Positions 4,791-35,082 of a DNA stretch of 52,717 nucleotides are shown one piece after another; the first letter of the stretch is position 1, and each line of letters starts with the position of its first letter. The notes below the pieces were generated by a model. That model worked only from the letters and a program-made list of their open reading frames with translations. It was not told the DNA's origin and made no database searches. Both the position numbers and the translations under genes were made by a program. The DNA comes from Candidatus Aenigmatarchaeota archaeon (GTDB lineage: Archaea; Aenigmatarchaeota; Aenigmatarchaeia; JACPZZ01). The DNA lies in contig JACPZZ010000023.1 of assembly GCA_016195275.1 (NCBI GenBank), positions 1 to 52,717 of the forward strand, written 5' to 3'.

Positions 4791-4919
4791 CGGATCCGGC
4801 GGGATTTGAACCCGCGACCTTCAACTTTCTCCATCCCCTTTTGGTAAGCTTTTCCTAAAAGCTTGTTCTAAAAAGCTCGTTAGGAGGCTGCCGCTCTGTC
4901 CAGGCTGAGCTACGGACCC
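4791..4919 (-). tRNA. tRNA-Arg(CCU) with 54-nt intron at the canonical 37/38 position
   Basis: Hand fold: acceptor GGGTCCG/CGGATCC, D arm GCTC-AGCCTGGACA-GAGC, anticodon arm GCAGC-CTCCTA[intron]A-GTTGA (27:43 is a G.A mismatch), T arm GCGGG-TTCAAAT-CCCGC. The intron maps to about 4827-4880. No encoded CCA. Confidence 0.8.
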
Positions 4920-4976
4920 GTTTAATTGGATTAGCATCCAAAGATATGAGTCAATTAAAGCAGCGTAATTAAAATA

Positions 4977-5501
4977 TTAACAGGAAAACTCCTTCGTGGC
5001 GGTTATCTGGTTGAGCTGGCTGACGCAATAAGTCTTGTTTTCCTGTATGTAATAATACTTCAACGAATCATCCTCCAAAACATACCTTCTGAGGCAGCAT
5101 ATGGTTACGGCAAGGTTATTGGAAAGCCCGCGAAGTTCCGCGACCTCTTTTTGAAGGATTGCAACACTGTTAATGTACGTAGTTATGTTGCTTTCCCTGA
5201 CAGCCGTTTCGCCGGCCAGCCTGGAGTTTTCTGTTTTTTTGACCTCAAGGTCTGTGCGGCAGGAATTGAACAACTCTGCGGTGCGGTTCAATGTTACTGT
5301 GCATTCCGCGGTGTTTTTCTCAAGGTTTTCTATCACGGCTTTGGTATACGTGGAATTTGCCGCGGCTTCCTGCACCTTTATCAGCGATGTCGTAAAGCCT
5401 GTCACACCCCTGCCTACAAGCACGACAAGGCCCACAAGGAAAACGATTATCAATATATGGGACACGGGCACGAACTGTTTTTTGCCCAGACGTTCAAGCA
5501 T
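4977..5501 (-). CDS. membrane-anchored coiled-coil protein, function unknown
   Basis: 174-aa ORF with an ATG start. One N-terminal TM helix (ILIIVFLVGLVVLVG), then a heptad-like extracellular region with several sequons and cysteines. Confidence 0.5.
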   Translation of the reverse strand: MLERLGKKQFVPVSHILIIVFLVGLVVLVGRGVTGFTTSLIKVQEAAANSTYTKAVIENLEKNTAECTVTLNRTAELFNSCRTDLEVKKTENSRLAGETAVRESNITTYINSVAILQKEVAELRGLSNNLAVTICCLRRYVLEDDSLKYYYIQENKTYCVSQLNQITATKEFSC

Positions 5502-5600
5502 AATATTATCTGGTCGGAAAGTTTAAAATAGTAGCCCGGAAGTCCCTTTCGCAAGACGGGTGGTGACAGCGAACCGTACAGGAACGCCATAATTCGTTGA

Positions 5601-7400
5601 TCAGGCATAGCATTTTATTTTTCTGCGGTTTACAACAGCCCTCACAAGGGAAGAGCCCACATCGGAATCTTTTGAAACCTTGATCGCATCCTTGGCCCCG
5701 ACCGTAGCCGAGAACAAAAACTCGTCTTCAACGTAAACAGACACCACCCTGCCTGATATTCTGGCATCAAAGCCGATATTTACGTAAGCGCCGGATTCGG
5801 AGATGGTGTGCGACACCAATTTACCCAGGCTCTTAGCAAGAGGTTCTACATCTATGGATATGCCGAGTTTTCTTTCCAGCTCGTTCACAGTCTTGCCTTC
5901 CTTGCCTATTACGCGCGCGATCAGTTCGTTATCAACGCGCACAACCGCTTTGTTGTCGCTTATTATTTCAACATCCGCCTGCGGATCGAATTTTCTTATT
6001 TCCTGCAATATGCGCTCGCCTGCAAGCTTTCTAACAGGATGTTCTGTTTTTGCATCGGCCACAGGAACAACCACATTCTCCTCGCCGTACGTGTATATTT
6101 CGTATTCGCATTTGCCGGTTTCAAAATCGCGCACTTCTATCAGCGGCCTCGCAAGGTCGGCTTCGGTCATGCCCGACGGAACACGAACAATGAGGCCAAG
6201 TTCATAAACCTTCTGTACGGAGCCGCCCTTGAGGAAGATTATAGTGTCCAACACGCTCGTTATCATGCCCATTTCTATCCTGCCGATAAACCTTTGTATG
6301 GAATCTATTGCAGCCGAGGCATGGACAACGCCTACCATGCCGACGCCGGCCATGCGCATGTCAGCGAAAACCTCAAAATCTTTTGTCTTGCGCACTTCGT
6401 CGTAAACAGTGTAATCCGGCCTGACCAGAAGCAATATGTCAGCGGTTTTTTCTATGCTGCCGTCCAGCGGGCCGTACTGTGTTATCTCCGGCGGAACTTG
6501 CAAGTCCCTCGGATTTTCTATAGTCTTGACTATTTTATCCAGGGAAAGGTAAAATTCCGCCACGGATGCGGCGAATGTCGACTTGCCGGAGCCCGGAGGC
6601 CCGCAGATTATAATTCCCTCGGCCCGCTGTTTCAGGCGGTCCATTAGTTTGTCGGAAAGCTTGTAATCGGCTAGAACCAGTTTTGTTATCGGGCGCACTG
6701 CGGTTAACTCAAGCCCGTCGCTGAACGGCTTCCTGGCAATCGCAATGCGGTATTTGTCAAATTGTATAACAGTGGCGCCATGCGACCCCATTTCAATAAA
6801 CGCGTTTTTTTCGTGCCTGACCCTGTCCATTATTTCTTTTATCAGTGTTTCTATCTCCTCTTCTTTCATAGCCGTGTCGCGTATGCGGGCAAGTTTGACC
6901 TCGCCCGGCTTGCCTTTCTTGGCCATCGGTAAAACATCAACTTTCAGGTGGACTGAAGACGTGTTTTCATCGAAAAAATCCTCGAGTTTTATGGGCAACG
7001 TAGAACGCGTCTGCTGTATGTAAAGCACAGAAACCCCCTCCGCCTCTGCGACCAGGGCCTGCACATAGTCCGCTGTGATCAGTGTCGCTGCGTTCTCGCG
7101 TGCGATATCGCGTATTAGCGCGTCTAACCGCCCCTTTTTAGCCAGCATTATCTCTTCCATTGTAGGCCTTCGCCCAGTGAAAATAAGTTTTACCTTCTTA
7201 CCCAGCTCACCTAAAGCGCGGACTTTTTTTAACTCTTCCAGGCCCTGGAATCCGATGTCCCTTCCGCGCGAGGCCTGGGCCTGCAGCTCATCGATAACAG
7301 TCACAGGCACTATAATTTCGCCTTCGACTTTATCGCTTTCAACAAGCCCGGTTAACTTTCCATTGATCAGAACAGAGGTATCTGGCACCCATTTCTTCAT
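5601..7400 (-). CDS. PIN-domain / PilT-like ATPase / KH-domain protein (COG1855-type)
   Basis: 599 aa. N-terminal PIN signature VPDTSVLI, Walker A GPPGSGKST, and a C-terminal KH GxxG motif (VIGKEGKTVNELERKLG). Confidence 0.8.
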   Translation of the reverse strand: MKKWVPDTSVLINGKLTGLVESDKVEGEIIVPVTVIDELQAQASRGRDIGFQGLEELKKVRALGELGKKVKLIFTGRRPTMEEIMLAKKGRLDALIRDIARENAATLITADYVQALVAEAEGVSVLYIQQTRSTLPIKLEDFFDENTSSVHLKVDVLPMAKKGKPGEVKLARIRDTAMKEEEIETLIKEIMDRVRHEKNAFIEMGSHGATVIQFDKYRIAIARKPFSDGLELTAVRPITKLVLADYKLSDKLMDRLKQRAEGIIICGPPGSGKSTFAASVAEFYLSLDKIVKTIENPRDLQVPPEITQYGPLDGSIEKTADILLLVRPDYTVYDEVRKTKDFEVFADMRMAGVGMVGVVHASAAIDSIQRFIGRIEMGMITSVLDTIIFLKGGSVQKVYELGLIVRVPSGMTEADLARPLIEVRDFETGKCEYEIYTYGEENVVVPVADAKTEHPVRKLAGERILQEIRKFDPQADVEIISDNKAVVRVDNELIARVIGKEGKTVNELERKLGISIDVEPLAKSLGKLVSHTISESGAYVNIGFDARISGRVVSVYVEDEFLFSATVGAKDAIKVSKDSDVGSSLVRAVVNRRKIKCYA

Positions 7401-7563
7401 AATTATCAGTAAGTCATGTCTTTCGCGATATTTATATTTTGTAAACGAACTAATCTCGGTTCGGATGAGTTCTATTATCTGTTAAACGCGGCTTCTTTAC
7501 TTGCTCATGCAGGCAATTTTTAAACTTTGGCAGTCTATCTTTCGTTAGCTTGTGGTGCTGGAA

Positions 7564-10500
7564 ATGAAAAGTGGACCTTACAAACCGCTGGAGCTGGAAA
7601 AGCAGGCAGCAGAGTTCTGGGATGACTCCGGAATATTCAAAAAATACATGGTTAATCGCAAAGGCGGTAAGAAATATTATTTCCTGGACGGCCCGCCGTA
7701 TGCAACAGGCTCTATCCATCTCGGGACGGCCATGAACAAAATATTGAAGGATTTTTTCATACGGTTTTTCAGCATGTCCGGTTATGACGTATCGATGCAG
7801 CCGGGCTACGACACGCACGGCCTGCCGATAGAGAATAAGATAGAAAAACAGCTTAACTTTCGCTCGAAAGCGGACATAGAAAAATTCGGCATAGAAAATT
7901 TCAACGTGGAATGCAGGAGGTTTGCCACAAAATTCATAGAAACAATGAACGGCCAGTTCAAAAACCTCGGCGTCTGGATGGACTGGGATAATCCGTACTT
8001 AACGCTGGACAAAAGCTACATAGAAGGCGCTTGGTACACTTTCAAAAAGGGCTTCGAGAACGGTTTGTTATACAAGGGAAATTACCCGGTCCATGTATGT
8101 TCGCATTGCGTTGACCCGGATTCTACAATACTTGTTGAAAATGGCACCAGAAAGATCAAAGAGCTGGAAAAATGCTGGCAGCACAACAATGTAGTATCGT
8201 TTGACACTGATTCAAAAAAATTGTGCATCACCAAGCCTTTAGGTTATATGAGGCACAAAGAAGATGCGTTCGTCCTGAGAACCGAGTTGGGAAAGAAGAT
8301 AATAGCGTCCAATGACCATCCATTCTGGACAAAAAACGGCTGGCTTCCTATGTCGTCGCTTAAAACCGGGACAGAAGTCGCAACTTATAACAGTGTAGAA
8401 AGCAGGCTGCCGCTCATTGAAGAGAAAGGGAAATCGCTGGTCAATCGGGGCAGAATTAGAGACGTTATCGAAGGCCTTGAAACTTCAGGAAAGGGTGCAA
8501 ATTTCAATGATTTGAAAAGCAGTTCAAGGATAGAAATCAAAGAGTATGTGCGCGAACTAAGGAAAAAAGGGTTTTCATACCGCCAGATTATAAAATGCGC
8601 AACCAATAAATTCAGAACCAAAGTTTCTAAATCGTGGGTTTCAAAGATTATAAAAACCGAAACGTCTACAAGGTATGATTTGATAATCAAAGACCTGGAG
8701 CAGCGAAGTCTTTTACCGCTTTATAGCAAAAACGCAAAAGCTTTTGTCCTTGCCAGGCTGGCCGGCCACATGTTCGGGGACGGATCGATAATAGCTAAGC
8801 GCAGCCCAAAAAGGAAATTTCCTATTTTTACCCTCGTATTTACAGGAAAAGAGGAGGATATGAAAGAAATACAAAAAGATTTAGATGCGTTGGGATACAA
8901 TTATACACCGATAACCACGGTAAGAACCAGATCCAGAATAAACGGAAGATTAGTTGACGGGTTTACTACATCGATGAGATGCTATGCGCATTCCTTGGCC
9001 GTTTTGCTGGTTTGTTTGGGAGCTCCCACAGGAAGAAAGTCCGAGTGCATCGCCAGTATACCAAGGTGGGTATATGATAACAAAAAACTGGCCAGAGAGT
9101 TTTTAGCCTCGTACTTTGGGAGCGAGTTGGATATTGTGAAACCTAGAAGATACGAAAAGGGCTTCGAAGTCCTCCGGCTGCATATGCACAAGGATATAAA
9201 ACTTAAATCAAATGGGATCAAATTTGCAAAAGCCATATGCGAGCTTGTAGGAAGCTTCGGAATAAGCACAGGCAAACTTGTTGTCAAAGATATGACAGTT
9301 AATGATAAGAGCAAATCCAAGATCACGATAAGCATAGATTGCAACGATGATAATATTATTAGATTTTTAAAATCGTTAGGATACGAATACTGCAAAGAAC
9401 GCAAAACCAGAGCATCTCATGCCTTGGGCTATCTGTACTACAAAAAGAGAAAAGAAAGAGAGATGGAAAAAATTAAGAACCGTATTATAGAGTTGAGGAA
9501 ACGCAATTTCAAGCCTGATAAAATCGCGGCTAGATTGAAAGTGCCGGAATTTTACGTAAGGCATGTTCTTTACGGAAAATCAAAACACACGCGGCCATCT
9601 AAATACATACCAGTATTCGGCAGGTGGCTAAGCGATGCATCAAAAAATTTAAAAGACGGTATGGTATGGGATATTGTAGAGAAAATAAAATACTTGGGAA
9701 AACGCGAGGTCTGTGATATAGCGGTTGAAACCCATCACAACTTCATAGTCAACGGTTTTCTGGCTCACAACTGTGAAACAGCGGTCTCGTTCAACGAAAT
9801 AGAGCACAAGGAAGTGCAGGATAGTTCCATATACGTAAAGTTCAGGATAAAAAACAGCAACGACAGCCTTTTAATTTGGACAACAACGCCATGGACGCTT
9901 CCTTCGAACACGGGAATAATGACCAACCCGGATTACGAATACGTTCGGGTGAAAACCAGCAAAGACATTCTGATAATGGCAAAGGATCTTGCTGAAAAAG
10001 TCATGCTTGCCGGCAAGGCGGAATATTTCGAAATCATAGGCACGCTCAAAGGCAGCCAGTTAATCGGAACAGAATACGAAAATCCGTTAAAAGACCTTCC
10101 GCTGCAAAAGAACATCGTGGGTAAAGTCGTCCCGTCAGAACAATATGTCACGCTTGAAGAAGGCACAGGGCTGGTACACGTGGCGCCTGGGCACGGCAGG
10201 GAAGATTATCTCGTGGGCATTAAGCACAACCTTCCTGTCCTGTCGCCGTTAACAATGGGTGGCACGTTCAAGGCCGAAGCCGGCTGGCTTGAAGGCAAGT
10301 TTGTGAAAGACGCGGAAAAGGAGATAATTGAGAAACTCAGGGAAAAAAACGCATTGTTTGCAGCCGAAATTATAACACATGAATACCCGAAATGCTGGCG
10401 CTGCGACTCAAGCCTTTTGTTCATAGCGGTCCCGCAATGGTTTTTCAGGGTAAGCGCGATCCGCGAAAAGTTGGTAGAGGAGAACGAAAAAGTCAGCTGG

Positions 10501-17991: not shown

Positions 17992-18648
17992 TCACCTTGA
18001 TTTGCATATAATAAATGCGTGATCGGCCTCAAACGGGTCAAGCGTAACGTAATCCAGTATTTCAAGCTTGCCCTTAATAGCGTCGACCGATTCCTGGAAA
18101 ATTTTTTTCGGATCCTTTGTAACGTCTATGCTCCTTGATTTTATAGCTATCATTGCAAAGCCGCCTTTCCTTAGGAACGCGTCAGCATTTCGCAGCAGTA
18201 TTGCAACCTGTTCCGGATCAGCAACATCCTCATAGACTATATCAACCTTCTCGACCCATGAATAATCCTCCGGCTTGCGCGCATCAGCCAGTATGGAAAC
18301 TATGTTGCCTCGCTGTTCGCATGCACGCACAAGGTCGCTTACGGCACGCGAAGAAAATTCCACACCATAGATTATGCCGTCGCGCCCTATGATATCTGAG
18401 AAATAAGAGGCCGTCTGCCCCTGGGCAATTCCCAGATACAAAATTTTTGAACCTTTTTTAATCGGGAAGTTCTTTACACCCCTAAATATGGCAGCCGCGG
18501 GTTTTGATTTTTCCGGGTTCCATACCCTGTATTCGGAACCATCGACTGGTATTATCTTTTCAGAATACGACCTGCCCGTTACAAGGTTCTTCGTGCAGAG
18601 TTGGCCGCCAATCAAAAAAACCCCGTCAAAAATTTCCTTTAATTCCAT
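17992..18648 (-). CDS. flpA: fibrillarin, C/D-box sRNP 2-prime-O-methyltransferase
   Basis: 218 aa. YRVWNP, ILYLGIAQGQTASYFSDI (SAM site), DVADPEQ and an archaeal-size protein. It lies directly downstream of nop5. Confidence 0.9.
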   Translation of the reverse strand: MELKEIFDGVFLIGGQLCTKNLVTGRSYSEKIIPVDGSEYRVWNPEKSKPAAAIFRGVKNFPIKKGSKILYLGIAQGQTASYFSDIIGRDGIIYGVEFSSRAVSDLVRACEQRGNIVSILADARKPEDYSWVEKVDIVYEDVADPEQVAILLRNADAFLRKGGFAMIAIKSRSIDVTKDPKKIFQESVDAIKGKLEILDYVTLDPFEADHAFIICKSR

Positions 18649-18656
18649 GTTACCAG

Positions 18657-19739
18657 CTACTTTTCCCTGAAATGTTCAAGCGCATTTTTGACAAGCTTGT
18701 CGAGCTCTTCTTTCATTTGATCGCTCATGTCCCGGCCCGAATAAAAATCAATCCTTGCGGCAAGCGTCGCTTTAGATGCCACGATGCGCGCTATTTTTCC
18801 CCGTGTGGGTATCGGCGCGGATATCACAGCCGGATGGTAAAATATTATGCCGTGTTTCGGCGCCTTTCCCTGTTTTTTCAGAAACCTGAACAATGCCTTT
18901 TCCGCGCCCAGTAATTGTATTGTCGAAGACGGTAATTTTGAAAGTTTGTCAAGCCCCCCTGCCAGCGAAACCAGTCTGAACGCAAGCAATGGTCCTGCTA
19001 CAGCGGATGTGTTGGGCATTATCTGCCTGCCCAGAATTTCAAGATAACTTTCGAGACCCCTTCTTTCGGCGTACATGCCTTTCAGCATCTTTCCCGTCTG
19101 TTTCACAGTTTCAAGGTCTTTTTCGTCAAATTCCATGCCAGCAGTTTCAATGTCAAATTTCCTTCCATCGCGCTCAAAGCTTCCGCGCAGGGTCTTTTCA
19201 GCCACGAAATCTGCGAATTTTTCATTATCCTTTATCAGGCCGTTTATCTCCGGAAAATAAAGGCCGTACCATTCTCTTAGATGTTCCGAAAGCGTGTTTA
19301 TGTTTTTGTTTAACTCATCAATCATCCCGACAACACGCATTCCTACTTTGTCCTTGTTGACGTTCCTGAGTTCGGACTTGGAGCTCTCTGTTCCTACGGC
19401 CGAAAGGATCTTGTTCAATTCTGATTGGGAGCCTGTCCATTTTTCCCTGATAGCGATTTCCCGGAAAACCGATTTGGCATTATTTTCCCCGGTATTTTCA
19501 GGGTCTTTTTTAAGGTAAAATTCGCCGGTCTTTGGGCAGGCGCTGTAAAATTCCTTGAAGCCCCCTTTAGCAAGCCTTCTGAGCAATACAACTTCTTCGT
19601 CCAAAAACGAATTTTTTACAGCGTTTAATTTAGCTGATATCTGCTTGGCGTCCTTTTTGAACAGCTCTTTGTCCGCAAGTTTTCCGTTCTCGTCGAACGC
19701 GAAAATGCCCACAACTGTATAGCCCAGATACGCTTTCAT
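18657..19739 (-). CDS. nop5: Nop56/58 (Nop5) C/D-box sRNP core protein
   Basis: 360 aa. Nop-domain signature LLGAEKALFRFLKKQGKAPKHGIIFYHP, a coiled-coil middle region, and the conserved archaeal nop5-flpA operon order. Confidence 0.9.
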   Translation of the reverse strand: MKAYLGYTVVGIFAFDENGKLADKELFKKDAKQISAKLNAVKNSFLDEEVVLLRRLAKGGFKEFYSACPKTGEFYLKKDPENTGENNAKSVFREIAIREKWTGSQSELNKILSAVGTESSKSELRNVNKDKVGMRVVGMIDELNKNINTLSEHLREWYGLYFPEINGLIKDNEKFADFVAEKTLRGSFERDGRKFDIETAGMEFDEKDLETVKQTGKMLKGMYAERRGLESYLEILGRQIMPNTSAVAGPLLAFRLVSLAGGLDKLSKLPSSTIQLLGAEKALFRFLKKQGKAPKHGIIFYHPAVISAPIPTRGKIARIVASKATLAARIDFYSGRDMSDQMKEELDKLVKNALEHFREK

Positions 19740-19779: not shown

Positions 19780-19934
19780 TGCGGGGGGCCGGATTTGAAC
19801 CGACGAACCCACTAAGGGATCAGATCTTGAGTCTGACGCCTTTGATCATTGGTTGTTCAGACAGACGCATACCATGTATGCGTCAGTTTGCTCCACCTCA
19901 TCACTCAAGTTTGACCGGACTTGGCTACCCCCGC
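19780..19934 (-). tRNA. tRNA-Leu(CAA), class II, with a 69-nt intron in the D-loop
   Basis: Hand fold: GCGGGGG-TA-GCC-AAGTCCGGTCAAA[intron]GGC-G-TCAGA-CTCAAGA-TCTGA, variable arm TCCCTTAGTGGGTTC, T arm GTCGG-TTCAAAT-CCGGC, then CCCCCGC-A. The intron is about 19841-19909. The boundary is ambiguous by up to 5 nt because TCAAA is repeated at both junctions. Confidence 0.75.
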
Positions 19935-20008: not shown

Positions 20009-20479
20009 TTAAGAAGAAATAGCCTTGACTTCGCTTTTTAACTTCTCCAGCTGCGCTTTTAACTCGTTTAAGGAAACCTTCATTTCCGCCCGTTTAGCCT
20101 CGAGTTCCAGGTCTATGTTCAATCCCTGCGGCCGTCCCATCTCGGCATCCAGCGTTTCTATGATCTTATTGGTCTTGTCCAGGGTCGCACCAAGGGCCCT
20201 GTTTGTTTCCATGAACATCTCCTGGGCGCTGTTTAGGACAGAACCAAGCTGTTTCAGGGTCTCTATGTCGTTTTTCAAAGCCCCGAAATAAGAAAGCATT
20301 TCCTTGTAACGGTCAACTTTGATGAATAAAGGCGCCTCGCGCACCGGCGTAGGTTCTGCGGGCTTTTGCACAGGTCCGGCCGCAGGAAATTCGTGGGTCA
20401 TAAGAGCCTGCTCATTCTCCATGGCAGGGCTCAATTCCCCGGAAAGTTTCTTTTTTACAAACCAGACCATATCATTCAT
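20009..20479 (-). CDS. coiled-coil protein, function unknown
   Basis: 156-aa ORF with an ATG start. A Pro-rich linker (PVQKPAEPTPV) is followed by long heptad-like helices. I recognise no enzymatic motif. Confidence 0.5.
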   Translation of the reverse strand: MNDMVWFVKKKLSGELSPAMENEQALMTHEFPAAGPVQKPAEPTPVREAPLFIKVDRYKEMLSYFGALKNDIETLKQLGSVLNSAQEMFMETNRALGATLDKTNKIIETLDAEMGRPQGLNIDLELEAKRAEMKVSLNELKAQLEKLKSEVKAISS

Positions 20480-20581
20480 TCTCTTTTGATTGACCTTTTC
20501 CTAAAAGGTCATATAATAACATTCAGATCCGGCTAATATAAATTTGCTTGCAGGACTAATCTGAGAAAAGACGGTTAAAAT

Positions 20582-20672
20582 GCGGCCATGGTCTAGCGGT
20601 AAGACACGAAAGCTTTAGCGGCTGTGTAAGCTTCCCAAGCTCGTTACCCGGGTCCGAATCCCGGTGGCCGCA
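20582..20672 (+). tRNA. tRNA-Gly(CCC) with a 20-nt intron inside the anticodon stem (position 29/30)
   Basis: GCGGCCA-TG-GTCT-AGCGGTA-AGAC-A-CGA[aagctttagcggctgtgtaa]GC-TTCCCAA-GCTCG-TTAC-CCGGG-TCCGAAT-CCCGG-TGGCCGC-A. Removing 20610-20629 restores a perfect CGAGC/GCTCG stem. The T-loop reads UCCGAAU (C at position 55), which is unusual. Confidence 0.7.
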
Positions 20673-21613
20673 TGATCATCAACCCAGGAATTTACAACCT
20701 CTTTTATGCCTTTCCTGTAACCTACAGTGGGACTGTAACCCAAAACCTGTTTTGCCTTTGAGATATCGTAATACCTGTCGCTTGATATGACCTTGATGTA
20801 GCGTTCAAGGACCTGGGGATCTTTCCCCTGTAATTTTTTGATGATATAATTTATTTTCGCGCCCCACACCGCAATTCTTTTGCTGACGTGTTCGTTTGGA
20901 GGAGCAACGCCAAGAAATCCAGAAACCAGCGCAAACGCCTCTTTCTGCGTTATCACTTCAGGCCCGCCTATGTTGAATGCGTCGTTAAACGGTTTTTTTA
21001 CAGCAGCCAGATAGAAAGCCTGCGCGCAATCCTTTGCATGAACAAAATGCAGCCTGTTGTTGCCGTCTCCGATAATCTTCATCCTGCCTGATCTGATCAG
21101 GCTCGTTATGCTCTTGAAGCCGGTCTCAAACCCCGCGCCGTAAATCACTGTGGGGCGCAGGAAAGTGTAGCCTATTCCGGATTTTTTAATTTCGTCTTCG
21201 GATTTGATCTTGCTTAAGCCGTAAGCGTCCTTGGCATTGCGGCCCAAATCTTCTGACACAGGAAGTTTCGGATTAAACCCGTAAACAGCCACAGAACTCG
21301 CATAAACGAATTTTACCGCGTCAGCTTCGACGGCAGCATCAAGGACGTTTTTCGTCCCTTCGTAATTTATCCTCATCATGTATTTCGGTGATTTTCTGAA
21401 ATCCAGCGTCGCTGCCAGATGGACCACCGTTTCGACGCCTTTCAGGGCTTTCGGCAAAGAACCCTTGTCTAGGATATCTGCCTGTACGACTTCGGAATTG
21501 CGCAATCTTTGCATGCCGGTGCGGGACATTAACCTGGTCTTAAGGCCTTTTGATGAAAACAGCCGCGAAACGTAAGAGCCGAGATTGCCATCCGCGCCGG
21601 TTATCAGTATCAT
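20615..21613 (-). CDS. NAD-dependent epimerase/dehydratase family protein (SDR)
   Basis: 332 aa. ITGADGNLGSYV Rossmann motif and YGLSKIKSE (YxxxK). The last ~19 codons run antisense through tRNA-Gly. Confidence 0.8.
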   Translation of the reverse strand: MILITGADGNLGSYVSRLFSSKGLKTRLMSRTGMQRLRNSEVVQADILDKGSLPKALKGVETVVHLAATLDFRKSPKYMMRINYEGTKNVLDAAVEADAVKFVYASSVAVYGFNPKLPVSEDLGRNAKDAYGLSKIKSEDEIKKSGIGYTFLRPTVIYGAGFETGFKSITSLIRSGRMKIIGDGNNRLHFVHAKDCAQAFYLAAVKKPFNDAFNIGGPEVITQKEAFALVSGFLGVAPPNEHVSKRIAVWGAKINYIIKKLQGKDPQVLERYIKVISSDRYYDISKAKQVLGYSPTVGYRKGIKEVVNSWVDDHAATGIRTRVTSLGSLHSR

Positions 21614-25443: not shown

Positions 25444-25488
25444 AGCCTCTGGTGGGATTCGAACCCGCAACCTTCTACTAGGTAAATA
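25444..25488 (-). other. orphan tRNA 3-prime-half-like element (anticodon-arm-like stem, T arm, acceptor 3-prime strand)
   Basis: Minus-strand RNA reads TCTAT-TTACCTA-GTAGA-AGGTT-GCGGG-TTCGAAT-CCCAC-CAGAGGC-T. The T stem has one C.A mismatch. No matching 5-prime acceptor strand (G[CU][CU]U[CU]UG) is found up to 26005. Confidence 0.4.
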
Positions 25489-25518
25489 GACACGCGCCAT
25501 ACAAAACAGGCGCGTGTC
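25489..25518 (-). repeat. perfect 10-bp GC-rich hairpin abutting the orphan tRNA half
   Basis: GACACGCGCC-TGTTTTGTAT-GGCGCGTGTC. The segment CCTGTTTTGTA is identical to 11 nt of the anticodon arm of the adjacent tRNA-Thr. Confidence 0.7.
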
Positions 25519-25528
25519 AGTTATCAAT

Positions 25529-25624: not shown

Positions 25625-25903
25625 TCAAATCTTATAATAATAAAAGGGTATCAGGTTCGTATAATTAACTTTTGGTGCGGCGCAGTTCATTCCTAGCCTG
25701 TTTAATTCGTCATATAATATTTTTAAAAAATTCCCGTCTTTTAGGTGTATCCTGTTATGGTCGACGTAACCGTCTGTATCAGCAAGCCCTGCGATAAAAT
25801 GCATCTTTAGCTTTCTGTCATTTAACCAAGACACCACCGCAATATCACAGATACTATTCGTTAGTGATATTATCATCGGATATGTATTTAATCCGTATGG
25901 CAT
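25625..25903 (-). pseudogene. truncated free-standing LAGLIDADG homing-endonuclease ORF
   Basis: 92 aa with a clear motif HFIAGLADTDGYV. Only ~45 residues follow it, too few for a complete LAGLIDADG domain. It lies directly upstream of tRNA-Thr and the orphan tRNA half. Confidence 0.55.
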
Positions 25904-29090: not shown

Positions 29091-29096
29091 CAAACA

Positions 29097-29255
29097 TCAC
29101 TTATTTCTTTGGTAAACGTTCTTAAGCCACCATCGCTTAAACACAGGCGTAGTCAATGTGGATATTATCGTGACATACGTCGCAATTGCTATGATAATAC
29201 GCCGTGTCCAGCTCGTTTCCCAAGCCTTGTTTTTTCTGGTCATTTGGCCAACCAT
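29097..29255 (-). CDS. possible unlisted 52-aa single-pass membrane protein
   Basis: My translation: MVGQMTRKNKAWETSWTRRIIIAIATYVTIISTLTTPVFKRWWLKNVYQRNK. ATG start, one TM helix flanked by basic residues. It fills the gap between tRNA-Met and the HD gene on the same strand. Confidence 0.3.
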   Translation of the reverse strand: MVGQMTRKNKAWETSWTRRIIIAIATYVTIISTLTTPVFKRWWLKNVYQRNK

Positions 29256-29368
29256 TGCCTGGACCGAGAATTGAACTCGGGACCTTTCGATACCACTTCA
29301 CAGCCGCTAAGGCTCGTCACTCATAATGAACTTATGAGTCGAACGCTCTACCGCTGAGCCACCCAGGC
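29256..29368 (-). tRNA. tRNA with CAU anticodon (elongator Met or Ile2) with 41-nt canonical intron
   Basis: GCCTGGG-TG-GCTC-AGCGGTA-GAGC-G-TTCGA-CTCATA[intron]A-TCGAA-AGGTC-CCGAG-TTCAATT-CTCGG-TCCAGGC-A. The intron segment TTATGAG pairs with the anticodon loop CTCATAA. The anticodon stem lacks the three G-C pairs of initiators. Confidence 0.85.
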
Positions 29369-29395
29369 ACGCTTAATTAACTTTCATGACCCCAT

Positions 29396-30064
29396 TTAAA
29401 TTCGTTTCTTTAACATGACGCACACGTTCTTTGAAAAGATTTTGAACGGCAGTTTGTAAGAATCCTCGGCAAAAAGTTTAACCACCTTGAAACCTGCCAT
29501 TTTAGCCAGCCTTTTCATTTCATTGTAGGTGAACAGGTGATAGTATCTGTAATGAACGGTTCCTTTATGGTTCCAAGCGACATACCGGTCTTTTTTACCC
29601 AGTATAAAGCGTGGCTGCGTTTTATTCCATGTGGTGACCAATGCAGTTCCGTTTGGTTTCAAAACGCGGAAAACCTCCTTGAACGCCCTTAATCGCTTTT
29701 CATAAGAATCAAGGTGGTGGAAAACAGCCACCGACAAAGCATAATCAAACGTGCCATCTTTGAAGGGAAGAGCCATACAATTTGCCTTTATCAAAGGGAA
29801 TTTTACCCTGTTTTTATCCATAAACTTTCTTGCCCGGAACAGCATTTGTTTGCTTGTATCTACTGCGACACATTCAAAGCCGTGTTTCGCAAAAACAACA
29901 GAATACGCGCCAATACCACAGCCGACATCCAACAGCTTGCCTTTAGGCCATGACTTGGCATAATTTTCAGGGTTGAAGATGACAAATGGGTTTTGTCGTA
30001 AATGGTACCAGCCTTCCGCTATCGAATCATAAACCTTTTCAACATCCTCATCCGTGAATCGCAT
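29396..30064 (-). CDS. class I SAM-dependent methyltransferase
   Basis: 222 aa. Motif I LLDVGCGIGAYS and the post-I acidic residue context. Confidence 0.8.
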   Translation of the reverse strand: MRFTDEDVEKVYDSIAEGWYHLRQNPFVIFNPENYAKSWPKGKLLDVGCGIGAYSVVFAKHGFECVAVDTSKQMLFRARKFMDKNRVKFPLIKANCMALPFKDGTFDYALSVAVFHHLDSYEKRLRAFKEVFRVLKPNGTALVTTWNKTQPRFILGKKDRYVAWNHKGTVHYRYYHLFTYNEMKRLAKMAGFKVVKLFAEDSYKLPFKIFSKNVCVMLKKRI

Positions 30065-30098
30065 AAGTTTATCTTACTTTGGGAGTGTATTTAATCCC

Positions 30099-31517
30099 AT
30101 GAGCGTCTCGGCAGAAACTACGAACGTCAAGAAAAAAGTCCGCACAATATCCGGTGTCAGTATCGTAGCTGTAATGACAAAACCGCTTCCTTGCCCGGGC
30201 AAATGCATTTATTGTCCGGGCGGCATAGACAAAGAAATTCCAACGCCGAAAAGCTATCTGCCAAAATCGCCTGTGGTAATGCGCGCAGCACGCGACGCTT
30301 ACGACCCTTACCTGCAAACTGCGTCCCGCCTGAAGGCGCTGAAATCGATGGGCCACATAACCGATAAAGTTGAGATTATTGTGATGGGCGGCACGTTCAT
30401 GGCTACGCCAGTCGCATATCGACACGACTTCATCAAAGGGTGTTATGACGGATTGAACGGCTTTGTTTCAAACACGCTTGCAGACGCAAAAAACTACAAC
30501 GAAACCGCAGAGAACCGCTGCGTTGCCATGTGCATCGAAACAAGACCGGACTGGGCTTATGAGTATCAAATCAACCAAATGCTTGATTTCGGTGCGACAC
30601 GCGTTGAACTTGGCGTCCAGATACCGGACGACGAAAATTACGTATTAACAAAGCGCGGTCACACGGTAAAAGATGTCATCGAATCGACCCGTTTGTTAAA
30701 AGATTCCGGTTTCAAGGTCTATTACCATTATATGTGCAACCTGCCCGGATCTGAGTTGAAAAAAGACCTGGAGATGTTCAAAGTTTTGTTCGAAAACCCA
30801 GACTTTCGTCCGGATGGCGTCAAAATTTACCCGTGCCTTGTGCTGGAAAACACAGAATTGCAGCAATGGTTCGACAAAGGCGAGCATTACGCCTACACGA
30901 ACGACGAATTAATCGAGCTGCTGGTGAAAATAAAAAAGTTAGTTCCACGTTACGCAAGAATATCACGTGTGATGCGCGACATACCTGCGGAGTATGTTGT
31001 CGGAGGCACGAAATATTCCCATTTGAGGGACGCCGTGAAGGCGCAAATGTCACAGAAAGGTATGAAGTGCGCATGCACAAGGTGCCGTGAAGTTGGTTAT
31101 AGTTTGCTAAGCGGAAAACATGTTGACGAAAACGCTATAAGGCTCAACAGAATGGATTACGAAGCGTCAGACGGGCATGAAATTTTCTTGAGTTTCGAAG
31201 ACATGAAAAATGATATTTTGTTGGGTTTGTTGCGCCTGCGCTTCCCTTCAAGGCCTTTCCGTCCGGAGATAACACCAACTACGTCGCTTGTAAGGGAAAT
31301 CCACGTATTCGGAAAAGAAACAGCAATAGGCTCGGCGTTTTCCGCAGAGCAGTTCCAGCATCGGGGATTTGGCAAAAAACTTCTAGAAGAAGCGGAAAGA
31401 ATTTCGAAAGAAAACAACACGGAAAAAATCGCGGTCATTTCGGGAGTCGGCGCGCGGAGGTATTACAGAAAGCTTGGCTATACTCTGGAAGGCGCGTATA
31501 TGGTGAAAATACTATGA
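30099..31517 (+). CDS. elp3: Elp3-type radical-SAM/GNAT tRNA modification enzyme
   Basis: Radical-SAM cluster CPGKCIYCPGG and a C-terminal GNAT motif QHRGFGKKLLEEAE. The ORF opens at GTG 30054, which overlaps the divergent gene, so I prefer the ATG at 30099. Confidence 0.85.
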   Translation: MSVSAETTNVKKKVRTISGVSIVAVMTKPLPCPGKCIYCPGGIDKEIPTPKSYLPKSPVVMRAARDAYDPYLQTASRLKALKSMGHITDKVEIIVMGGTFMATPVAYRHDFIKGCYDGLNGFVSNTLADAKNYNETAENRCVAMCIETRPDWAYEYQINQMLDFGATRVELGVQIPDDENYVLTKRGHTVKDVIESTRLLKDSGFKVYYHYMCNLPGSELKKDLEMFKVLFENPDFRPDGVKIYPCLVLENTELQQWFDKGEHYAYTNDELIELLVKIKKLVPRYARISRVMRDIPAEYVVGGTKYSHLRDAVKAQMSQKGMKCACTRCREVGYSLLSGKHVDENAIRLNRMDYEASDGHEIFLSFEDMKNDILLGLLRLRFPSRPFRPEITPTTSLVREIHVFGKETAIGSAFSAEQFQHRGFGKKLLEEAERISKENNTEKIAVISGVGARRYYRKLGYTLEGAYMVKIL

Positions 31518-32272
31518 CAGAGGAAAAAGTGTATTTCAAAACTCCGAAAGGAAACACACTTTGCGGCGTATTGTCGCGTCCGAACAAGAAGCACGATTCC
31601 GTCGTAGTGATCTGCCACGGGTTCAGATCCAGCAAAGACGGAAAATCCTCTCCACAGCTGCAGAAGATATTGAATGGCAGAAACATTGCAACGTTCAGGT
31701 TTGATTTTTTCGGTCATGGCGAAAGCGACGGGAAATTTGAAGATATAACAATATCCGAAGCCGTCGAAGACGTCTTAAGTGCGATACGTTTTGTAAAAGG
31801 CACGGGTTATTCGAAAATAGGGCTCATTGGAACGAGTTTCGGAGGCATAAGCAGCATTGTGGCAGCGTCCAGATCAAAAGACTTGCGTGTTCTTGTACTG
31901 AGGGCACCCGTTTCCAATTATCAGGAGAAAGAGACGCTGAAACGGGGCAATTCGGGCATTGAAAGATGGAAGGAAACGGGATACGTCGAATACGACGATA
32001 ACGGAAGAAAATTTAAACTGAAGTATGCATTCTTCGAGGATTTCGAAAACAATAACGGTTACGAGGCCGGTAAAAACATAAAAATCCCAACTCTGATCAT
32101 TCACGGGGATAAGGACGATGTTGTTCCTATAGAACAGAGCATCAGACTTTCCAAAATTATCAGTAATTGCAAGTTGGAAATAATCAGAGGCGCGGATCAC
32201 AATTTTACCGATGAAAATGATTTTATCAGAACTCTTGAGTCGACGGCCAATTTTATCACAACCAAACTATAG
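31514..32272 (+). CDS. alpha/beta-fold hydrolase
   Basis: 252 aa. Nucleophile elbow GTSFGG, a late Asp (HGDKDDVV) and His (GADHNF). It overlaps the elp3 stop by 4 nt. Confidence 0.75.
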   Translation: MTEEKVYFKTPKGNTLCGVLSRPNKKHDSVVVICHGFRSSKDGKSSPQLQKILNGRNIATFRFDFFGHGESDGKFEDITISEAVEDVLSAIRFVKGTGYSKIGLIGTSFGGISSIVAASRSKDLRVLVLRAPVSNYQEKETLKRGNSGIERWKETGYVEYDDNGRKFKLKYAFFEDFENNNGYEAGKNIKIPTLIIHGDKDDVVPIEQSIRLSKIISNCKLEIIRGADHNFTDENDFIRTLESTANFITTKL

Positions 32273-33130
32273 CGCAGTTTTTATCGCTTTCGGTATGTAA
32301 TCAATTAATTTCGAAGCAGTCAAACCTTCTCCCCAGTCTTTAGCACACATATCCCCGGCCAAGCCATTTAAAAAAGTTGCGACACAAGCCGCACCAAAAA
32401 CATCGGTACCTCTTGAAATCAAAGCACCGCATATTCCCGCAAGCGTGTCGCCTGTTCCTCCGACTGTCATATAAGGATTTCCGGTTTTGTTTATTGAAAT
32501 TTTACCCTTTGCACCAATTACGTCGGTATCACCCTTCAAAACTATTACAACATCAAGCGAAGAAGAAAATTCCGTGACAAGCTGAATTCTTTTTTGCAGA
32601 TCCAGATCAACGTCCTTGCCGGAAAATACGGACATCTCATAAGCGTGCGGTGTCAAGACTGCGTCTCTACCGTCCAGAATTTTATGGTTTTTAGGCGTTA
32701 GCGCTTTTATCGCATCCGCGTCTATTACCATAGGCTTTTCAATTTTAGAAATTATTTCCAAAACAGCAGCCATCGTTTCTTTTTCCATACCAAGCCCATT
32801 GCCTATCACAATAGCGTCGGCGCGTTCGGATAATTTCAAAACAGGTTTGGTATGCGATTTGTTCAGATAATCACCTTTAAGCGGAAAAGCCATTATGTCC
32901 GGCGAGAAAGAGGCCATAACATCCGCGGCCCGCCTCGGCGCAGCATTCCAGACAAGGTCGCATCCGGACGCATACGCGGCGAGGGAAACAAGAGCGGCGG
33001 AGCCTGTGTATTTGTCCGAACCTCCGATAACAAGAAGCTTTCCGTAATCGCCTTTTTTCGAAAATTTGTCGCGTGGCAAATAGATTTCCTTGACAAGTCT
33101 GTTAGAAGTTTCCATGAAAGGTGTTTTCAT
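32267..33130 (-). CDS. nnrD: ADP-dependent NAD(P)H-hydrate dehydratase (YjeF C-terminal/carbohydrate-kinase fold)
   Basis: 287 aa. GGSDKYTGSAALVSLAA and GTGDTLAGI motifs. Confidence 0.8.
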   Translation of the reverse strand: MKTPFMETSNRLVKEIYLPRDKFSKKGDYGKLLVIGGSDKYTGSAALVSLAAYASGCDLVWNAAPRRAADVMASFSPDIMAFPLKGDYLNKSHTKPVLKLSERADAIVIGNGLGMEKETMAAVLEIISKIEKPMVIDADAIKALTPKNHKILDGRDAVLTPHAYEMSVFSGKDVDLDLQKRIQLVTEFSSSLDVVIVLKGDTDVIGAKGKISINKTGNPYMTVGGTGDTLAGICGALISRGTDVFGAACVATFLNGLAGDMCAKDWGEGLTASKLIDYIPKAIKTAL

Positions 33131-33142
33131 AATTATACCATC

Positions 33143-34006
33143 TCAAATGGCCATGATAATAATTCCCGATATGACAGACAAGACACCGATATATTGCAAT
33201 TTAGTCAGCCTTTCTTTCAGTATCGCAAAAGACAAGACGACTGTAATAAGCACAGAAGCAGACGCTATCGGAGAAACTACAGAAAGATATTCGCCGCTTA
33301 TGCCAAGATTGTAAGCCAGCCCGCCCAGAAAATTTAAAACACCAGACGCCGCCGCGATCAATATATATTTGAGTCCGACTTTTGCTTTGTCGCGCATTTT
33401 AGGGAAAAACAATATGGCAATCATAAGCGTCTGCCAAATGGAAAACAGGAAAGTTGCAGAAAGCCAGCCGACTTCGTCGATTGCGACCTTGCCGAATGCA
33501 AGAGACGAGCCGAAAAACACCATAGACAGCAGCGCTTCAGAGGAACCTTTCATTGCGTGCTTCTTGATCGACGATCTGGCTTCGGAAACCTTCACCACAG
33601 CCATGAATATGCCGGACACTATGAGCAACGCAGCCGCGGCCTGGTTTAAAGTGGGGATTTGGTGAAAAACCAAAAATCCGATAACAACCGTTACCAGCGA
33701 CCAACTCGAGACAACAGGCGCAACCAGCGCAACTTTTCCTATCCTGAGCCCTTTGTATAACGCAAGAAAACCGAGTATCATTAGAAAGGCTGGCGGAAAC
33801 GAGATCAACAAAGACTGTCCGGAAAAATGTATTGTGCCGGGGAAAGCCAGCATATACGCAAGCATCATAAAAAATATAGCAACCTGCCCTATTACGAGCG
33901 TCCTTATGCTTCCGATTTTCCTAACCGGGTGTACAACGATAAAATCAGCAATCCCCCAGCTGAACATTGAAAATAGCGCCAGCAAAAAGCTTTCTGTGAC
34001 AGCCAT
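33143..34006 (-). CDS. EamA/DMT-family transporter
   Basis: 287 aa, about 10 TM helices arranged as two EamA-like halves. Confidence 0.8.
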   Translation of the reverse strand: MAVTESFLLALFSMFSWGIADFIVVHPVRKIGSIRTLVIGQVAIFFMMLAYMLAFPGTIHFSGQSLLISFPPAFLMILGFLALYKGLRIGKVALVAPVVSSWSLVTVVIGFLVFHQIPTLNQAAAALLIVSGIFMAVVKVSEARSSIKKHAMKGSSEALLSMVFFGSSLAFGKVAIDEVGWLSATFLFSIWQTLMIAILFFPKMRDKAKVGLKYILIAAASGVLNFLGGLAYNLGISGEYLSVVSPIASASVLITVVLSFAILKERLTKLQYIGVLSVISGIIIMAI

Positions 34007-34047
34007 GCAATTTAATTAAAACCGGAGACGGAAATACGCGACTTTGG

Positions 34048-34965
34048 TTACTGTTTTATGGACCCGCTTCCTACGATCCGCACGCCCTGCGATTCCGGCC
34101 TCAATACCACCGCAATTTCGCCCTTCTCGAAAACAATAGGCCTCATAAACTGCAATTTCATCGGGTTTATTGAAACAATTTTCGCGGTCTTCATCTGCAT
34201 GCCGACATTAACCACGAACGTTTGGTTTTCTTTAACATCCTCTTTGAAATATTTGTTCTGCTTGTAGTCCAGTGTAACGTCCTGTGAAACTTTTTCGTCA
34301 GAGCCGCATAAAACATCCCCGCGCTGGACATCGCCGGCGTTTATCCCCTTTACAGCCAAGCCGGCGCGCGCCGGTGCTGCAGCCTCTGTAACGGTATCGT
34401 CGTGCATCTGTATGGATTTTATCATAACTTCGGTTCCGGCAGGAAAAAGTTTCATTGTATCGTAAGTTTTTATTTTTCCGCGGGCGACCTTGCCCAATAA
34501 AACGACACCGACGCCCTTAACCTCGAAGGAATGGTCGATAACAACTTTCGCGCTGCCTTCTTCAGAAACCGCAGGCAATGCGTCCATTTCGGTTTTTAAA
34601 TTCTGAATTTCGACAATTTTGTATTTTTCAGCAACCGTGCCCCCGGTCATTGATAACAGCTGTTCGCGGTCGATGTCGTACGAATGACATAACAGCCCTT
34701 TGTCCTTTCCAAGAGCATCCAATGCAATTATCTGCTCGCCGGTGAATTTGTCAAGTTTTGTGATGTAAAGGATTGCGTATTCGCCCATCTGGATCGCATG
34801 GAACAGCGATTGTATTTTATCCGGGAACCCTGTTGGCAGAGTCCAAGTTTTGACAATTCCGGGGTCTTTGCGGTCGTAGATTGTTATATCGGACGACGTA
34901 CCTTTCTTGCCCCAATCTTTGACGATTGATTCTTCACCGAGAAATGTGTAGTTGATGGAAATCAT
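34048..34965 (-). CDS. EF-Tu/EF-1A-like protein with degenerate G domain
   Basis: I trimmed to the ATG at 34965 because the longer ORF runs through tRNA-Lys. Domain II signature KGVGVVLLGKVARGKIK...IKSIQMHDD. The G4-like TKLD is kept, but no GxxxxGK[ST] P-loop or DxxG is present. Confidence 0.7.
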   Translation of the reverse strand: MISINYTFLGEESIVKDWGKKGTSSDITIYDRKDPGIVKTWTLPTGFPDKIQSLFHAIQMGEYAILYITKLDKFTGEQIIALDALGKDKGLLCHSYDIDREQLLSMTGGTVAEKYKIVEIQNLKTEMDALPAVSEEGSAKVVIDHSFEVKGVGVVLLGKVARGKIKTYDTMKLFPAGTEVMIKSIQMHDDTVTEAAAPARAGLAVKGINAGDVQRGDVLCGSDEKVSQDVTLDYKQNKYFKEDVKENQTFVVNVGMQMKTAKIVSINPMKLQFMRPIVFEKGEIAVVLRPESQGVRIVGSGSIKQ

Positions 34966-34982
34966 TTTTAAACATCTTTTAT

Positions 34983-35082
34983 TGGGCCCAGCGAGATTTG
35001 AACTCGCGACCTGTCGATATCCCAATGAACTAAAAAAGCTCAAATAAGAGTCGAACGCTCTACCAGGCTGAGCTATGGGCCC
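34983..35082 (-). tRNA. tRNA-Lys(CUU) with 26-nt canonical intron
   Basis: GGGCCCA-TA-GCTC-AGCCTGGTA-GAGC-G-TTCGA-CTCTTA[intron]A-TCGAC-AGGTC-GCGAG-TTCAAAT-CTCGC-TGGGCCC-A. The 27:43 pair is a U.C mismatch. The intron is about 35019-35044. Confidence 0.8.

Follow-up and report, generated by a model that had tools for sequence, protein, structure and literature searches.

Probably interchangeable inner hairpins in the tRNA introns of an Aenigmatarchaeota contig, one of them a copy of a dispersed palindromic repeat

The stretch analysed here, contig JACPZZ010000023.1 from a Candidatus Aenigmatarchaeota archaeon (52,717 nucleotides, hereafter the window), carries seven tRNA genes, for Arg(CCT), Leu(CAA), Gly(CCC), Thr(TGT), a CAU anticodon, Lys(CTT) and Ala(CGC), and all of them except Thr(TGT) are interrupted by introns. 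The initial annotation had counted introns in six of the seven genes and proposed, from words shared among them, that the introns belong to a related family that was mobile or duplicated. The count was confirmed by excising each predicted intron and calling the spliced sequence with ARAGORN, which restored the cloverleaf and gave an accepted tRNA in all six cases (Arg cct, Leu caa, Gly ccc, Met cat, Lys ctt and Ala cgc). The genes and their introns are as follows.

4791-4919, minus strand: tRNA-Arg(CCT), 54-nt intron at 37/38 (4827-4880); Rfam 46.3 bits, ARAGORN with introns
19780-19934, minus strand: tRNA-Leu(CAA), D-loop intron of about 68 nt (19843-19910, boundary ±1); found by eye and by an acceptor/T-arm scan
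20582-20672, plus strand: tRNA-Gly(CCC), 20-nt intron at 29/30 (20610-20629); Rfam 45 bits
25529-25602, minus strand: tRNA-Thr(TGT), no intron; Rfam 67.5 bits, ARAGORN
29256-29368, minus strand: tRNA(CAU), 41-nt intron (29292-29332 for a 37/38 position, shifted by one base toward the 3′ end of the RNA for 38/39); Rfam 56.8 bits
34983-35082, minus strand: tRNA-Lys(CTT), 26-nt intron at 37/38 (35019-35044); Rfam 58.3 bits
52451-52582, plus strand: tRNA-Ala(CGC), 60-nt canonical intron (52487-52546); ARAGORN with introns; outside the span of the initial annotation

Rfam detects five of these seven genes (Leu and Ala are missed), ARAGORN with default settings detects two, labels Gly as Leu and overlooks the true Leu(CAA) gene, and ARAGORN permitting introns detects all seven with three wrongly named. 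Because standard finders miss or misname most of the tRNA genes in the window, the tRNA counts of DPANN metagenome-assembled genomes (MAGs), and hence the completeness estimates built on them, are likely too low. The closest genomes are Candidatus Aenigmatarchaeota MAGs from groundwater (71-79% identity for Nop5 and 77-83% for an EF-Tu-like protein), and the exact DNA of the window was found only in Logan contigs of groundwater metagenomes; the source is a DPANN archaeon and not a member of the Thermoproteales. Comparison loci and contigs are referred to below by L-numbers (L121, L124, L178 and so on), with W for the window.

Each intron was checked for the register of the bulge-helix-bulge (BHB) motif, in which a 4-bp helix, H2, lies between two 3-nt bulges carrying the cut sites. 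The Gly intron forms a full BHB, with H1 aag/cuu, all four pairs of H2 (acac/GUGU), bulges GAA and AAG, and H3 AGCU/GGCU; with its 20 nt it is a complete minimal BHB intron, made up of A, the hairpin AGCU-UUAGC-GGCU, GUGU (which pairs with exon ACAC) and AA, and the same intron in L122 has a compensatory C-G to U-A change in H3. H1 and four of four H2 pairs (CUCC/GGAG) are present in the Arg intron, with bulges UAA and AAA, and the Ala intron has an H1 of 5 bp and a 4/4 H2 (UUCG/CGAA). The Lys intron, a hairpin UGAGCU-UUUUU-AGUUCA, follows the register only in part, with 3/4 pairs in H2, and the Leu D-loop intron takes a relaxed form, GGUC/GAUC between AAA bulges, as read by eye with the boundary set to within 1 nt. 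For the CAU intron, a BHB is obtained only at 38/39, where H2 (ucau/GUGG) has 4/4 pairs and H3 (UUCAU/(G)UGAA) has 5 bp and encloses a 12-nt loop, UUAUGAGUGAyG, plus the apical hairpin AGCC-UUAGC-GGCU. This register also holds in L122 and L124, it gives A at position 38 in all orthologs compared (W, L122, L124 and L125), and in L122 a G-to-A change converts a U.G pair to U-A. Of the intron positions first proposed (37/38, 29/30 and the D-loop), those of Gly (29/30) and Leu (D-loop) were confirmed, and a BHB for CAU requires 38/39 in place of 37/38.

A reading frame is also superimposed on the Gly gene, as the NAD-dependent epimerase open reading frame (ORF) at 20615-21613 (minus strand) runs antisense through the 3′ two-thirds of tRNA-Gly and stops inside the intron, where the reverse complement of the 12-mer described below reads CAC AGC CGC TAA. 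The TAA is kept in L122, and the stop codon places an extra constraint on the intron loop.

Every word that the initial annotation had quoted as shared between introns is present where it was reported, in the RNA sense. These words, and the hairpins to which the first of them belongs, are listed here.

20615-20626, plus strand, and 29299-29310, minus strand: TTAGCGGCTGTG, the 12-mer of the Gly and CAU introns; no further exact copy exists in the window
4868-4878, minus strand: GAGCTTTTTAG, Arg intron
35030-35041, minus strand: GAGCTTTTTTAG, Lys intron
35024-35031, minus strand (Lys), and 29325-29332, minus strand (CAU): AGTTCATT, with one non-intron copy at 25684
19897-19906, minus strand: GAGTGATGAG, Leu intron
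29313-29322, minus strand: GAGTGACGAG, CAU intron
20611-20626, plus strand: hairpin AGCU-UUAGC-GGCU plus GUG of the Gly intron, with the 12-mer; 16/17 against CAU
29299-29314, minus strand: apical hairpin AGCC-UUAGC-GGCU plus GUG of the CAU intron; stem kept in orthologs

When all 15 intron pairs were compared by local alignment against dinucleotide shuffles and random segments of the window, Gly-CAU was the only pair significant by itself (a 12-mer, 16/17 with flanks, p ≤ 5e-4 against dinucleotide shuffles), and we estimate the chance that any 12-mer is shared among the six introns at about 1e-3. The nominal p-values of Arg-Lys (0.008-0.04), CAU-Lys (about 0.02) and Leu-CAU (about 0.03) lose significance once 15 tests are corrected for; low p-values are nevertheless more numerous among the pairs than expected. 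The Gly/CAU match reported as a 12-mer proved to be one common hairpin, AGCY-UUAGC-GGCU plus GUG, in which the 12-mer forms the loop (UUAGC) and the 3′ strand of a 4-bp stem together with GUG. The GUG serves as H2′ in Gly and as spacer plus H3′ in CAU, and these different roles favor common descent over convergence. Among CAU orthologs the stem is kept and the loop varies, being UUAAC in L122, L125 and L178 and GUUU in L124. A genome scan with a 17-nt degenerate pattern for the Gly/CAU hairpin returned background matches only.

The four other modules are weak, pair with like exons, or are partly exon. The Leu/CAU word GAGTGAYGAG does not represent recent copying, since it is conserved in orthologs of both introns, which points to selection, and its TGAGT is complementary to ACUCA at positions 31-35 in both tRNAs. 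The statement that complementarity to the anticodon does not explain the shared words was therefore partly wrong, and likewise TTAGCGAA of the Ala intron pairs with exon UUCGC. The nominally significant match of AGTTCATT between Lys and CAU is probably due to chance, as it lies in a bulge and H3 in CAU and in the 3′ strand of the hairpin in Lys. The Arg-Lys word GAGCTTTTT(T)AG is a T-run word that in Arg belongs to a decayed 5′ hairpin arm, and it was not accepted as homology. The pattern AAGCTTT(T)AG...AAGCTT, ascribed to both Arg and Gly, stands for Arg, where AAGCTTTTAG...AAGCTT is a full copy of a 28-nt element, and fails for Gly, where the second AAGCTT consists of two intron and four exon bases. 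The objection that such k-mers are common background words was dropped for the 12-mer, GAGTGAyGAG and GAGCTTTTT(T)AG and retained for AAGCTT, which is about 2-fold over-represented in the window (25 sites against 12.9 expected). A family of related, copied intron modules exists, although most of the five modules originally listed are not evidence for it.

The 28-nt element belongs to this family and is a palindrome with an asymmetric ACCAAAA tail (consensus GAAGCTTTT-NGG-AAAAGCTTC-ACCAAAA), which we modeled with a covariance model, R1, whose training set included both copies in the window.

4839-4864, minus strand: AAGCTTTT-AGG-AAAAGCTT-ACCAAAA, element copy in the Arg intron; R1 35.9 bits, E 2e-5 (training-set member)
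4865-4879, minus strand: CGAGCTTTTTAGAAC, the 5′ arm, now decayed, of another such hairpin, containing GAGCTTTTTAG; recognized by comparison with L126
20484-20510, minus strand: GACCTTTT-AGG-AAAAGGTC-AATCAAAA, intergenic element copy; R1 41.6 bits, E 1e-6 (training-set member), match span 20482-20513

In the Arg ortholog of L126, an intact hairpin, CGACCTTTTTT-CT-AAAAAGGTCG followed by ATCAAAA, stands in the place of CGAGCTTTTTAGAAC. The intergenic copy lies 71 nt upstream of tRNA-Gly on the opposite strand and just 5′ of the ORF at 20009-20479, and its stem variant also occurs inside the Gly(CCC) 37/38 intron of L180. In an all-against-all comparison, the core of the window Arg intron matched the 37/38 intron of the L124 Leu gene at 29 of 33 positions. 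Three outer pairs of the 9-bp stem covary (CG, GC, AU and UA), giving 15 double-change cells against 4.1 for shuffled controls, with none of 500 shuffles as high. Outside the training set, R1 found the element in the 37/38 introns of L180 Gly (E 2e-4) and L178 Leu (1e-3; here the stem is compensated with respect to L124), in the L126 Arg intron (6e-3) and immediately 3′ of tRNA-Leu in L125 (1e-3). Across roughly 250 kb of Aenigmatarchaeota DNA, R1 gives seven strong matches, each of them inside a tRNA gene or no more than about 70 nt away from one.

The element is not confined to this lineage. A genome scan with an exact pattern taken from the Arg/L124 match gave 13 matches, where we estimate about 0.4 by chance, in several contigs each of Micrarchaeota and Bilamarchaeaceae MAGs, two Thermococcus MAGs, one Novacetimonas contig and the L124 genome, and the loci fetched with the pattern comprise 36 distinct sequence contexts, a few of them within single tandem arrays. 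In Micrarchaeota, the element occupies tRNA introns at several positions and in both orientations: in the D-loop intron of an Asn gene (L130) and the 37/38 intron of another (L137), antisense to the tRNA in both; in 37/38 plus T-loop introns of Glu (L133); in D-loop plus T-loop introns of Met and antisense to the tRNA in Val (both L140); and in T-loop or T-arm introns of L141, L151 and L172. Some of these tRNAs (L141 and L172) were reconstructed by eye and were not accepted by ARAGORN. Other copies flank a tRNA (L170) or lie 5′ of protein genes (L132 and L136). In sense copies the hairpin starts 1-3 nt past the 5′ cut, and antisense copies end 2-3 nt before the 3′ cut, so that, viewed as DNA, the end of the hairpin abuts the exon and the tail is directed away.

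A 25-mer of the element was found at 33 metagenome loci, including low-GC contigs that resemble giant-virus DNA, in which stop codons are directly followed by tandem arrays of the element, repeating every 28 nt with no spacer. It is also present in a tailed-virus contig with terminase and capsid genes. In acetic-acid bacteria the element is abundant as part of a longer repeat (L155), with five copies within 5.8 kb and others on plasmids, and one bacterial plasmid copy is 93 nt from an IS630 transposase gene. Thermococcus contigs carry related hairpins directly after tRNA 3′ ends. A literature search by element sequence returned nothing relevant.

L167 19-186, L173 22-75 and L176 2368-2530: tandem arrays in the giant-virus-like contigs
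L142 9112-9165: two tandem copies, listed for the tailed-virus contig

A second hairpin family, CUGA-ARCAUA...UAUGYU-UCURG, represented by CTGACGCATAC-ATG-GTATGCGTCTG at 19862-19886 (minus strand) in the Leu intron, is found in introns and leaders alike. It recurs in the T-loop intron of the L124 Leu gene (SW 33, p ≤ 3e-4) and in an extra D-loop intron of L123, and was noted in L181 as well. Copies in 5′ leaders, 8-20 nt upstream of tRNA 5′ ends, accompany Ala (window 52416-52442, plus strand), Thr (L123), Leu (L125) and Lys (L178 and L180), and another is found in the Thr trailer (window 25487-25520, minus strand).

Synteny is conserved between the window and its relatives, which makes orthologous tRNA genes comparable, and the orthologs of Leu, Gly, Arg, Thr, Lys and CAU differ in the number, site or content of their introns. 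This comparison, which the initial annotation had suggested as a check, showed rapid gain and loss. Leu genes carry one to four introns: the ends of the D-loop intron (ACTTGAGTGATGAGG...CCAATGAyyA) are kept in L121-L125 and L178 around a middle of variable length, a 37/38 intron absent from the window is present in these same six relatives, and there is a second D-loop intron in L123 and a T-loop intron in L124. The 29/30 intron of Gly(CCC) exists only in the window and L122; in L121, L124, L178 and L180 the gene is interrupted at 37/38, and in L123 and L125 it is uninterrupted. Arg(CCT) exons are nearly identical (one base differs among those read), and yet L127 has an unrelated intron and L126 a rearranged one. 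Thr orthologs have either no intron or two. Among relatives the CAU intron is conserved together with its GAGTGAyGAG motif, and the Lys intron is orthologous with one substitution in L181 and shows a compensated hairpin, UGAAC-UUUU-GUUCA, in L179. No intron-lacking population variants were found in the contigs of four groundwater runs.

Given the intron geometry, the alignment statistics, the covarying and dispersed element and the turnover among orthologs, we infer that insertion or copying of a palindromic repeat, acting in DNA, seeds or remodels these introns. The reading that we hold to be probable, if well short of certain, is that they are archaeal BHB introns with target-specific ends and interchangeable inner hairpins, some of which were copied as DNA. 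The ends pair with the adjacent exon and set both predicted cut sites in 3-nt bulges around the 4-bp helix, the form cut by the tRNA splicing endonuclease, and the interior would be a more or less interchangeable hairpin. Shared modules would then be of three kinds: inner hairpins that share an origin through DNA copying, such as the Arg core (the 28-nt repeat) and the 13-nt hairpin of Gly and CAU; exon-pairing stretches that are alike since the exons are alike, such as TGAGT opposite ACUCA in CAU and Leu; and short T-rich or palindromic words shared by chance. The tRNA genes of this lineage are unusually intron-rich, with fast gain, loss and rebuilding of the introns. What is shared is the inner hairpin and not the whole intron, and it is not restricted to introns. 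As expected for a transposed family, introns of different tRNAs are alike (Gly-CAU at 16/17, Arg and L124 Leu at 29/33), in the inner hairpin only, and their positions differ, being 29/30 and 38/39 within the window and D-loop, 37/38 and T-loop for the element in Micrarchaeota. Antisense copies, copies outside tRNA genes and a tail kept in both orientations favor a process at the DNA level over reverse splicing.

Several observations weigh against this interpretation. A single intron pair of 15 is significant by itself inside the window, where only the Arg intron carries the 28-nt element, so that the case for a family comes largely from other genomes. The exact Gly/CAU 12-mer of the window is partly luck or gene conversion, because the loop is UUAAC in three CAU orthologs and the Gly and CAU hairpins of L122 agree at only 8 of 12 positions. 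None of the eight window ORFs scanned for domains, that at 20009-20479 among them, carries a transposase domain, and no transposase was found beside archaeal copies, near which the ORFs are housekeeping genes as judged by their first residues; copies were flanked by no consistent target-site duplication when inspected by eye, and a pair of empty and filled sites with clean ends was sought and not found. A search for RNA runs containing the window sequence returned only DNA metagenome runs, and the splice junctions are predictions. The stems of the orthologous L124 and L178 Leu introns are compensated, which places the hairpin under selection, and a functional motif would look alike. Weak hairpins of the R1 type turn up repeatedly at 0-30 nt from the starts of genes and the ends of tRNAs, a placement that hints at a regulatory or processing role instead.

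The last two points belong to the main rival explanation, which we consider unlikely, namely that the modules are functional RNA or DNA motifs (processing, protein-binding or regulatory signals) kept by selection and are not mobile copies. In one form of this idea, the element is an acceptor-stem-like microhelix ending in ACCA, and GAGUGAYGAG is a motif that binds or masks the anticodon loop. Stem covariation and the compensated copies of L124 and L178 would be accounted for, as would hairpins that often begin 0-3 nt after a tRNA 3′ end or 5′ splice site, weak copies just upstream of tRNA and protein gene starts, and the retention of GAGTGAyGAG in two introns across relatives whose Arg intron was replaced. 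However, a role in the pre-tRNA cannot account for the tail being conserved in antisense copies (L130, L137 and L140 Val), and spacer-free tandem 28-nt arrays and copies in viruses and bacteria fit a repeat better. With only two copies in the 52.7-kb window, the element was also rejected as a general promoter or terminator.

Somewhat less probable still is the transposition of whole introns at the RNA level, by which an excised circular intron would be reverse-spliced into another pre-tRNA and then copied to DNA. It would explain similar intron sequences in tRNAs of different identity and position, and PMC4090602 and PMC4033280 summarize a precedent. The similarity here is nevertheless limited to the inner hairpin, with ends that are target-specific, reverse splicing cannot produce antisense or non-tRNA copies, and no reverse transcriptase was seen in the loci read. 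Least probable, and already disfavored, is that there is no relationship at all beyond chance words, convergence through BHB pairing, T-rich composition and the over-represented palindrome AAGCTT: the 14 of 15 pairs that are not significant alone, the roughly 2-fold excess of AAGCTT, the exon complementarity of TGAGT and TTAGCGAA and the unrelated roles of AGTTCATT in Lys and CAU agree with it, but not the Gly-CAU and Arg-L124 Leu alignments, the 13 genome matches against an estimated 0.4, the 33 metagenome loci, or the R1 matches outside training (E 2e-4 to 6e-3), every one of which is in a tRNA gene or next to one.

The element can be compared with other short dispersed palindromes. REP/BIME elements are mobilised by RAYT, and hairpin-ended derivatives of IS200/IS605 are also known. 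Like them, the 28-nt element is a short palindrome with a conserved asymmetric neighbor, dispersed in either orientation and in clusters or tandem arrays, with a compensated stem; its many dispersed copies and a palindrome kept by compensatory change are what is expected of a repeat of the REP/MITE type. Unlike them, it has no Y1 or RAYT transposase near any 28-nt copy read, it lies inside spliced tRNA introns, and its consensus is common to archaea, bacteria and virus-like contigs.

Among tRNA introns, the pattern in the window and in other DPANN genomes resembles the intron transposition of the Thermoproteales, for which PMC4090602 and PMC4033280 describe similar introns in unrelated tRNAs, at many positions, read as transposition. 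The rapid gain and loss between related genomes is alike. The present lineage, in contrast, is DPANN (Aenigmatarchaeota and Micrarchaeota), what the introns share is an inner hairpin of 13-28 nt and not the whole intron, and copies of that hairpin, in either orientation, are found away from tRNA genes and in other domains of life as well. Intron gain in the Thermoproteales is supposed to proceed in DNA by a mechanism called unknown (PMC4090602). Highly disrupted tRNA genes and a broad-specificity epsilon2 splicing endonuclease have been described for ARMAN-2/Micrarchaeum (PMC3239211), and a survey found intron-rich tRNA genes in DPANN lineages (PMC5829648). These cases are alike in being DPANN with many non-canonical introns (D-loop, 29/30 and T-loop) and strict or relaxed BHBs, and differ in that the available portions of the two reports (PMC3239211 and PMC5829648) describe no shared repeat within introns. 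No splicing endonuclease was among the eight window ORFs scanned.

A literature search on Aenigmarchaeota tRNA introns brought up no account of intron modules in common. New here are the occurrence of the pattern in Aenigmatarchaeota and Micrarchaeota, the confinement of the similarity to inner hairpins, and the connection with a repeat that exists outside tRNA genes too. For the gain of introns by archaeal tRNA genes, the Thermoproteales case gave no donor and no mechanism; in DPANN archaea, one shared module has now been traced to a dispersed palindromic repeat with copies, in either orientation, away from tRNA genes and in a virus contig, which makes that repeat a testable candidate donor.

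A bolder extension, possible but improbable in our judgment, is that the hairpin plus ACCAAAA is a cross-domain mobile mini-element, perhaps carried by viruses, that inserts at or in tRNA genes and is tolerated where a broad-specificity endonuclease can splice it out. If so, the 28-nt element would give rise directly to new tRNA introns and eventually to split tRNA genes.

A variant of the proposal, which is only a lead, is that the pseudo-palindrome is a target of LAGLIDADG endonucleases encoded beside tRNA genes of the relatives, with breaks at the copies driving the shuffling of intron interiors. LAGLIDADG enzymes cut sites of the 21-bp pseudo-palindrome kind, and archaeal BHB introns with LAGLIDADG homing endonuclease genes are mobile in DNA. 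In likeness to these, LAGLIDADG_3 ORFs lie beside tRNA-Lys (L181 9002-9760, minus strand) and tRNA-CAU (L180 14065-14862, minus strand; L180 also carries an intein-bearing eRF1), and two more on a Micrarchaeota contig (L135 1650-2285, minus strand, and 2621-3184, plus strand) are beside 23S rRNA and an element copy. By contrast, the window introns discussed here, at 20-68 nt, encode nothing, and the eight window ORFs scanned include no LAGLIDADG ORF.

The Lys genes of L178 (9544-9633) and L180 (9301-9389) carry a different, non-canonical insert, TGTTTGTACGGTGAA, near the anticodon stem, which ARAGORN misreads as a Thr anticodon loop. In the window, a 3′ tRNA fragment, AGGTTGCGGGTTCGAATCCCACCAGAGGCT, lies at 25444-25473 (minus strand), beyond the 10-bp hairpin at 25487-25520 that starts about 9 nt after the intact tRNA-Thr(TGT). 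The T-arm of this fragment matches the Thr(TGT) genes of relatives and not the window's own Thr gene, and AGGTTGCGGGTTCGAATCCCACCAGAGGCT may be what remains of an ancestral Thr gene whose place was taken by another copy. At positions 50-64 of the T-stem (GCGGG/CCCAC), this presumed remnant shares a C-A mismatch with Thr(TGT) of L121 (6067-6140), L123 (3211-3284), L125 (5375-5448) and L122 (5844-5952).

The Leu intron was also considered as the host of a box C/D small RNA. Box C/D guide RNA occurs in the tRNA-Trp intron of Euryarchaeota, and the Leu intron is similar in having a GUGAUGA word and two CUGA words beside a stretch complementary to the anticodon loop. The motif TGAGTGATGAG (19897-19907, minus strand) is identical at 11/11 positions to the L124 CAU intron and is kept in Leu orthologs except L125; its TGAGT is the stretch complementary to the anticodon-loop ACUCA, and GUGAUGA resembles box C. 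In contrast to the Euryarchaeota case, the boxes are not conserved, and the reading was rejected: D/D′ is CUGG in L121 and missing in L124, box C is lost in L125 (GUGCAGA), there is no C′ box, stem I and the bulge do not fit kink-turn geometry, and the complementary stretch sits 5′ of the C-like box, the wrong side for a guide. A C/D reading of the CAU intron was likewise rejected, as it has no CUGA and its RUGAAG is H3′/H2′ of the BHB. The nop5 and fibrillarin genes, which encode proteins of the box C/D ribonucleoprotein, lie at 17992-19739 (minus strand), directly downstream of tRNA-Leu; their position beside box-like words is probably a coincidence, because the boxes are not conserved in relatives.

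Directly after tRNA-Ala, at 52593-52714 (plus strand), three strong hairpins (-58.6 kcal/mol, z = -11) stop just short of the window's end. The first and third resemble each other as palindromes of the form TAGGAAAyC-NNN-GrTTTCCTA, and the region gives a sub-threshold match to Rfam 'mir-7'.

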